Positions 31,364-32,014 of a stretch of 52,452 nt of DNA are shown piece after piece; within the stretch, counting starts at the first letter, position 1; each line of letters begins with the position of its first letter. This DNA is from Escherichia phage EcoM1, in sequence record PQ818760.1. The stretch is one strand, 5' to 3'. Both the position numbers and the translations under genes were made by a program. The notes under the pieces are model-generated. The model was not told where the DNA came from. It was given only the letters and a program-made list of their open reading frames with translations, and did no database searches.

Positions 31364-32014
31364 CTATTCCTGTTTAATGAGTGCCTCCCAGCAAACAGGA
31401 AACAACTCTGACATAATTTTATTAACTTCTTCTGCAAACAAACGTGCCTCATATTGGGCGTGCTCTGTAGAGCGTTGCTTGTACATATTAGCCCAGCCCA
31501 GCAAAGAGCCAGTCCAAATCCATGTAGTCATCATGGATTGTGGCAACACCATTCGGGCTTGCTCTGGAGCAATCCCCAAACCAATTAACGTTTCATACTC
31601 TGCAATGCAAGCCTTGTTGTGGATTTCCATGCGATAGTGAATATCGTCAGCAAAATCCTGTGGCAATGGTTGTGCGGTCTGAGTCATCAACTTTTCAGGA
31701 CGACCAAACACCACATCAGGTACAAAGCATTCAATTTCGATTGCTTCTCCATCTTTGTAACGACGGCTAACTTCGTTCCAACGAAATCCCACCTGGTGCT
31801 TACCCAGTTGGCGTGCAACAAAGATTGGTGCAGTGCAGCGTAATGTTACATACGCATGGGCAAAAGGTGTATTGTGCTTATGCTTTGCGAGAAATTCAAT
31901 CAGCTTCTCGTCGCGCAATGTCATCTCGTGGGACTCTGCACCATAAGAAGCTCGTGCAGCATTAACAGTTGTGAGGTCGCTGCCCATGTGGTCAACGAGT
32001 GTTGCAGTAATCAT
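31364..32014 (-). CDS. thyX: flavin-dependent thymidylate synthase homolog (ThyX family)
   Basis: Aligns by eye to ThyX across the signature region and the C-terminal ARMVLPQS...[16 protein letters not shown] block, but the RHR triad reads KHQ. Confidence 0.65.
   Translation of the reverse strand: [216 protein letters not shown]

Follow-up and report, generated by a model that had tools for sequence, protein, structure and literature searches.

The R-H-R-X7-S signature of flavin-dependent thymidylate synthases (ThyX), traced to Myllykallio 2002 (as cited in PMC2826268), contains an arginine-histidine-arginine triad whose contacts have been described in several structures. The triad hydrogen-bonds the phosphates and ribityl chain of flavin adenine dinucleotide (FAD), with the first arginine also touching the isoalloxazine ring and the substrate, deoxyuridine monophosphate (dUMP) (PMC6514825), and the contacts with the FAD phosphates, ribityl chain and isoalloxazine are given as its main binding role (PMC6514825, PMC11940539). 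In the reduced enzyme of Thermotoga maritima, R78 is directed at flavin N1/C2=O (PMC11940539). Here we examine the thyX-like gene of Escherichia phage EcoM1 (sequence record PQ818760.1; the whole stretch of 52,452 nucleotides is called the window below), whose product reads K-H-Q in place of the triad. We predict, with a probability that we put at roughly 80%, that its product is a working flavin-dependent thymidylate synthase belonging to a large, mostly phage-borne subfamily, in which RHR(X7)S has become [K/R]-H-x(X8)S.

Over its whole length the EcoM1 protein is ~34% identical to T. maritima ThyX, also called FDTS (TM0449; PDB 1kq4, 1o26 and others; E 7e-28), with which it shares the predicted fold, the ligand residues and the absence of a W-R...KQGS loop. 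The two proteins differ around the triad: in T. maritima, R78-H79-R80 is followed by a spacer of 7 residues and by S-G-R-Y, and in EcoM1, K-H-Q is followed by a spacer of 8 and by S-R-R-Y. PolB (PDB 4p5a), the UMP/dUMP C5-methylase of polyoxin biosynthesis, is homologous as well, but judged by scores only (E 1e-16 versus 7e-28) the EcoM1 protein is much closer to the T. maritima enzyme. PolB is the only documented ThyX paralog with a changed substrate range, which is set by loops that follow the substrate-recognition peptide; specificity in PolB depends on Loop 1, Loop 2, Tyr99 and Tyr126 and not on the RHR triad, and PolB-type Loop 1 and Loop 2 carry Tyr124/Tyr126 (PMC5003785). PolB Arg86, the equivalent of the first triad arginine, binds the ribose O3′ of dUMP, and R193, the equivalent of T. 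maritima R174 and EcoM1 R181, binds the pyrimidine O2 (PMC5003785). Phage enzymes acting at C5 of pyrimidine deoxynucleoside monophosphates (dNMPs) are also known, namely the ThyA-family dUMP/dCMP hydroxymethylases of T4, SPO1, ViI and M6, but these belong with classical thymidylate synthase and are unrelated to ThyX in fold and family (PMC8989533). Orthologs of the EcoM1 gene are found in other Chaseviridae (phiEcoM-GJ1 gp33, ST32 ORF38, and their counterparts in Yersinia phage PYps23T and Erwinia phage Y2), which are 68-99% identical, share the KHQ/SRRY signature and likewise lie beside a primase/helicase gene. The naming of the gene is not new, as GenBank has called the Chaseviridae orthologs thymidylate synthase since phiEcoM-GJ1.

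Motif register and conserved ligand residues

A preliminary description of the locus had identified the gene product as a ThyX homolog, and profile searches bear this out. Pfam PF02511 (Thy1) matches residues 5-207 over positions 1-191 of its 191 (E 7.4e-42), its score of 143.7 bits exceeding the cut-off of 24.8; the NCBIfam equivalog TIGR02170 (thyX), whose cut-off is 87.9, reaches 128.1 bits, and phrog_85 matches with an E-value of 2.5e-71. An AlphaFold2 model built from a 40-sequence alignment (mean predicted local distance difference test score 94.5, predicted template modelling score 0.88) has the ThyX monomer fold: the best PDB matches listed by Foldseek are all T. maritima ThyX, to which this predicted structure aligns with template modelling scores of 0.77-0.82 over ~212 columns (E ~1e-17).

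The description had also placed K-H-Q at the R-H-R positions by eye, with the caution that this alignment might be offset. The placement stands and the caution proved unnecessary, since three alignments give one register. The phmmer alignment to T. maritima ThyX (1kq4, with residues in native numbering, which is the chain numbering minus 12) sets K72-H73-Q74 against R78-H79-R80. A profile built from the RHR-type proteins of T. maritima, mycobacteriophage FrayBell, cyanophage MED4-213 and Thermus phage P23-45, four in all, reproduces this register at high posterior probability, and the third alignment agrees. The phmmer and the RHR-type profile alignments both insert a single residue at F77, so that 8 residues rather than 7 separate the triad from the motif serine S83. 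A search of the whole protein for the string RHR, which might have revealed an intact triad elsewhere, found none. R78 of the EcoM1 protein itself (in VGFRW) was considered as a shifted substitute for the third arginine and rejected, because this position is serine in most Chaseviridae homologs and variable across the subfamily. The premise that the triad arginines contact substrate is sound, T. maritima R78 and R80 being listed among the residues that hydrogen-bond dUMP (PMC3498832).

Outside the triad, the dUMP-contacting residues are kept: R68/Q69, E81, S83, R85, R154 and R181 align to T. maritima R74/Q75, E86, S88, R90, R147 and R174. The same is true on the flavin and folate side of H47, Y86 and E151 (T. 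maritima H53, Y91 and E144). These aligned ligand residues are near-invariant across the subfamily, and Q187 is also conserved in the EcoM1 protein and the subfamily. Within the triad, K72 keeps the side chain basic at the position of R78, the residue that points at flavin N1/C2=O in T. maritima. The gene is alive and under purifying selection, with a ratio of nonsynonymous to synonymous substitution rates (dN/dS) of 0.10 against phiEcoM-GJ1 and near full-length products (205-229 amino acids) in 120 of 120 close homologs.

A subfamily with a variable third triad position

Among the 120 closest database clusters, which are 68-99% identical to the EcoM1 protein and lie mostly on ~53-kb contigs, KHQ was found by motif match in 118 and by eye in one more (P0101), and one has KHS. 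To describe the wider group we took, from 7,055 hits at E ≤0.001, the best 150 representatives of clusters formed at 50% identity, counting triads without the EcoM1 and T. maritima sequences. KHQ was the most frequent triad (71), followed by KHK (24), KHT (9), RHT (6) and a scatter of others. The first position is K or R in all 150 representatives and the second is mostly H, at times S, T or Y, while the third was seen as Q, K, T, V, M, E, S, I, H, N, L or Y. Arginine occupies the third position in only 8 of the 150, and the complete RHR occurs in only one. Being free to vary, the third position therefore has no constrained role in the subfamily. S-R-R-Y, with an arginine directly after the motif serine, is present in 139/150 representatives; the RHR-type proteins of T. 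maritima, FrayBell, MED4-213 and P23-45 carry S-G/Q/A-R-Y instead (SGRY, SQRY or SARY). A rough neighbour-joining tree gathers the [K/R]-H-x/SRRY sequences into one large clade and leaves those of RHR type outside it. Both ThyX types occur in phages. K-H-Q is not unusual but the norm of a large, mostly phage-borne ThyX subfamily.

Outside the Chaseviridae, the closest relative is the ThyX of Kuravirus (Gordonclarkvirinae), which groups with the EcoM1 protein in the tree. The Kuravirus protein, for example Bas87_0055 of Escherichia phage Bas87, is ~50% identical to that of EcoM1 and resembles it in having KHQ, SRRYKDG and a remodelled loop after the substrate-recognition peptide. As a separate observation on the survey, many representatives are far longer than 220 amino acids and match the EcoM1 protein in 2-3 separate stretches, as in P0136 (480 amino acids), P0168 (530), P0246 (601) and P0256 (581), a pattern that would fit genes split by inteins or by other insertions.

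The subfamily is not confined to phages. A scan with the subfamily profile over one genome per bacterial and archaeal species gave 80 loci, and all 75 with a readable motif combine SRRY with a non-arginine third position. Several contigs of the Babeliales (TM6/Dependentiae) carry ThyX of RHT or KHS, SRRY and KQGS type among ordinary chromosomal genes (Table 1). At one of these loci, L054, the overlap of thyX with dcd, the dCTP deaminase gene, suggests a thyX-dcd operon, and such a pair has the layout of a dCTP-to-dUMP-to-dTMP route, dTMP being thymidylate. This chromosomal context is supportive, though short of proof, of a housekeeping use of the subfamily.

RHRX7S is thus better regarded as a description of the first-studied members than as a requirement, because the whole [K/R]-H-x/SRRY subfamily, including the chromosomal TM6 genes, departs from it. 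The EcoM1 protein is a ThyX by homology, by fold and by all but two of its ligand residues, though as a variant subfamily member and not a canonical one. As a filter, a use to which it was put in PMC2826268, RHRX7S is too narrow and would drop a large, mostly viral subfamily, for which [K/R]-H-x-X8-S-R-R-Y is the signature to use.

If the EcoM1 enzyme works as characterized ThyX proteins do, a homotetramer would bind FAD, NADPH would reduce the flavin, and the methylene group of methylenetetrahydrofolate would pass via flavin N5 to C5 of dUMP, to be reduced to the methyl group of dTMP. K72 would keep the positive charge that the first arginine places near the dUMP ribose and flavin N1/C2=O. 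The role of the lost third arginine has probably been assumed by R84 in S-R-R-Y, which lies on the substrate-recognition peptide next to the dUMP phosphate pocket and could represent a relocated phosphate-binding arginine. We infer this compensating role, as we do FAD binding, the tetramer and the identity of the product. In the ThyX of PBCV-1 the residue after the motif serine, Gln-89, can fill the dUMP phosphate pocket (PMC3498832).

Within the phage, the enzyme would form part of a dTTP supply line, in which a dUTPase provides dUMP, ThyX converts it to dTMP and the dNMP kinase of the phage carries it on to dTDP (Table 1). The relative phiEcoM-GJ1 carries, in addition, a gene for the small subunit of ribonucleotide reductase. 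E. coli is a thyA host, in which the ThyX route would serve a genome of 44% GC (44.1% in the window) without turning reduced folate into dihydrofolate. A phage-encoded boost of dTTP supply is the simplest reading of the role of the gene, and an ordinary dTMP-making enzyme is the most likely product; for the phage itself the departure from R-H-R would then be of little consequence, the gene being a normal-looking one for nucleotide supply. The structure and activity of a subfamily member would bear on the way in which FAD and dUMP are bound when the third arginine is missing, and on thousands of phage annotations.

The remodelled loop and other readings of the gene

Several points weigh against a working dTMP synthase. 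The literal signature R-H-R-X7-S is absent, the EcoM1 protein reading K-H-Q-X8-S. Compensation by R84 is not strict in the subfamily, where M, L or G takes this position in about 10 of the KH-type representatives, and the TM6 evidence rests on metagenome-assembled genomes. Searches of the PDB and the literature found no biochemical, genetic or structural characterization of any [K/R]-H-x/SRRY member, and the nearest solved structures are RHR-type; thymidylate synthase activity is therefore extrapolated from enzymes that are ~34% identical. The ThyX proteins of Chaseviridae and Kuravirus, moreover, lack the W-R-x(5-6)-K-Q-G-S loop and have a remodelled one in its place. Finally, kuraviruses have been reported as remarkably resistant to restriction-modification while having no known modification pathway (PMC11990801).

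The loop deserves attention, as it is near-invariant in most of the subfamily, the arginine being present in 133/150 representatives and each of the KQGS residues in 135-145/150; it is also found in the RHR-type protein of Thermus phage P23-45. The Chaseviridae version is itself conserved (R105, K108, L109, M110 and A114), and that of Kuravirus reads IFxRPSDLHAGxG. This remodelling, which affects exactly the Chaseviridae and Kuravirus, would be compatible with an enzyme that made some other C5-substituted pyrimidine nucleotide, or took dCMP or UMP, and so fed DNA modification. Phages with modified pyrimidines encode their own dNMP kinase, and the presence of such a gene in EcoM1 agrees with this alternative. 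By residue-offset count, the loop would correspond to Loop 1 of PolB, which is described as a substrate gate and which, from work on PolB, takes part in gating the substrate and in setting specificity (PMC5003785). ThyX chemistry, in addition, runs through an exocyclic methylene (PMC8989533), and capture of water by this intermediate would give 5-hydroxymethyl-dUMP as one example of an altered product. Nevertheless, the residues that contact uracil, ribose and phosphate are all conserved, as are those on the folate and flavin side, and the absence of the KQGS loop is no argument against the usual activity, because T. maritima ThyX, a genuine dTMP synthase, also lacks it.

Nor does the phage DNA itself point to modification. 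ICTV, the international body for virus taxonomy, gives no report of modified bases for Chaseviridae (PMC12842549). In PYps23T, whose ThyX is 79% identical to that of EcoM1 and also has KHQ, the DNA is cut by NdeI (CATATG) and MbiI, and the patterns agree with the in-silico prediction when its ~2.3 kb terminal repeat is counted in (PMC8762354). The annotation of phiEcoM-GJ1 contains no genes for downstream modification, such as glycosyl- or aminoacyl-transferases or a dTTP-excluding enzyme, and together with the ICTV account and the PYps23T digests it gives no sign of a phage pyrimidine hypermodification pathway. No ThyX-family enzyme in such a pathway turned up in the literature searched, and a full-text search combining ThyX with phage DNA hypermodification returned no ThyX-based modification pathway. 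We consequently regard a changed product or substrate as quite improbable, and the more specific proposal that the Chaseviridae and Kuravirus enzymes release 5-hydroxymethyl-dUMP or a similar compound, which the dNMP kinase would channel into DNA, as more doubtful still; if true, no ThyX-family enzyme of DNA modification would have come before it, and the restriction resistance of kuraviruses might find its cause here. The preliminary description had proposed altered specificity, with modified-pyrimidine synthesis as an example, an idea whose functional likeness is to the ThyA-family hydroxymethylases of phages. The DNA evidence tells against the example, and the general idea loses its ground once a non-arginine third position is seen to be the rule in a very large subfamily that includes chromosomal genes.

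A milder departure would leave the reaction as it is and change the handling of the cofactor, with looser flavin binding, exchangeable FAD, flavin mononucleotide in its place, or a different reductant. The chief documented contacts of the triad are those with the FAD phosphates and ribityl chain (PMC6514825), and in the subfamily the third position is unconstrained and even the histidine gives way to S, T or Y in a number of members, all of which this possibility would accommodate. It is difficult to reconcile, however, with the conservation of the other flavin-side residues and with a first position that is always K or R, and we consider it unlikely; it overlaps with a functional dTMP synthase rather than excluding one. 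The description had also raised an inactive paralog, and a catalytically dead or moonlighting protein, such as a nucleotide-binding regulator, would indeed be compatible with the literal failure of the RHRX7S signature, the one point in its favor. Conservation of the other catalytic and ligand-binding residues, together with purifying selection, argues against it: the catalytic residues are invariant over hundreds of divergent clusters, and the dN/dS value is as low as noted above. Going by the annotation of its relative phiEcoM-GJ1, moreover, this is the only ThyX-like gene of the phage, and in TM6 bacteria a gene of the same subtype lies on the chromosome and overlaps dcd. A dead or moonlighting protein would for these reasons be very surprising.

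Genomic setting

The window is essentially the whole genome of a phiEcoM-GJ1-like myophage (Chaseviridae, Carltongylesvirus), and a 5-kb query around thyX is 93-97% identical in nucleotide sequence to Escherichia phages TH53, JL1, ST32, Bp7 and phiEcoM-GJ1. The features discussed are collected in Table 1.

Table 1. Features of the EcoM1 thyX locus and of the TM6 loci used for comparison. Positions are those of the window unless preceded by the name of a locus.
Feature	Position	Strand	Remarks
thyX-like coding sequence	31364..32014	minus	216 amino acids, ATG start; flavin-dependent thymidylate synthase homolog
K72-H73-Q74 codons (AAG CAC CAG)	31793..31801	minus	positions of the canonical R-H-R triad
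S83-R84-R85-Y86 codons (AGC CGT CGT TAC)	31757..31768	minus	S83 = T. maritima S88; R85 = T. maritima R90
R84, subfamily-specific extra arginine	within 31757..31768	minus	Gly, Gln or Ala in RHR-type enzymes
Residues 101-114, loop after the substrate-recognition peptide	31673..31714	minus	remodelled; most of the subfamily has W-R-x(5-6)-K-Q-G-S
R181 codon	31472..31474	minus	= T. maritima R174, which contacts the uracil of dUMP; invariant in 150/150 representatives
Shine-Dalgarno-like GGAGAG	32018..32023	minus	4 nt upstream of the thyX ATG; read from the sequence
Primase/helicase gene	29597..31363	minus	abuts the thyX stop (TAG then ATG); identity from annotation of relatives
dUTPase	22974..23495	minus	PF00692 E 1.2e-22, phrog_135 E 5.7e-62; putative dUMP supplier
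Deoxynucleoside monophosphate kinase homolog	23498..24226	minus	phrog_139 E 5.3e-38, no Pfam match; putative dTMP consumer
TM6 thyX locus	L054:7890-9265		thyX stop overlaps start of dCTP deaminase gene; class II aminoacyl-tRNA synthetase beside it
TM6 thyX locus	L065:7875-8678		LpxB nearby
TM6 thyX locus	L055:7860-8666		LpxB nearby
TM6 thyX locus	L051:2398-3156		heptosyltransferase and M16 peptidase nearby

thyX and the primase/helicase gene are probably co-transcribed. An element similar to the Shine-Dalgarno-like sequence of EcoM1, CGGAGAG, has been tabulated before the start of the ST32 thyX homolog (PMC6266442). Within positions 31300-33500, a scan for terminator-like sites found none, and scans for promoters and repeats gave nothing exceeding shuffled expectation. 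The true start of the dNMP kinase gene is probably internal to the listed open reading frame (ORF), because the latter begins at TTG and is 34 amino acids longer than the phiEcoM-GJ1 counterpart, gp43; gp43 is annotated only as "phage protein".

We compared the window with two Kuravirus loci (L001:6001-6630, and L002:5992-6642 from phage Bas87) in search of shared partner genes, and only thyX was strongly shared. The Kuravirus gene lies in the context of a dCTP deaminase and a nucleotidyltransferase, whereas EcoM1 has a dUTPase and a dNMP kinase. Between the window and Kuravirus, the primase/helicase is 31% identical and the polymerase match extends over only 61 amino acids. Since these other replication genes are far more divergent, thyX looks to have been exchanged horizontally among enterobacterial phages.

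Three minor observations concern the surroundings of the gene. In phiEcoM-GJ1 an HNH homing-endonuclease gene (L003 16965-17429) separates thyX from the primase/helicase gene, which in the window abut directly (31361-31366), and HNH insertions around the thyX/primase block are present in several relatives. Upstream of the block formed by a gp32-like gene, thyX and the primase gene, ~950 bp (about 32300-33245 of the window) contain no minus-strand ORF of ≥60 amino acids, and repeat, promoter and Rfam scans of this stretch were without significant result; a comparable annotation gap exists in phiEcoM-GJ1 (14961-16028) and in ST32. Finally, positions 33800-33855 on the minus strand match an Rfam tRNA model below threshold, with 27.9 bits where the gathering score is 29 (E 0.005), and ARAGORN makes no call for them; at the syntenic place in phiEcoM-GJ1, between gp30 and the Rz-like spanin genes, the annotation reads "tRNA-Arg, may contain an intron".

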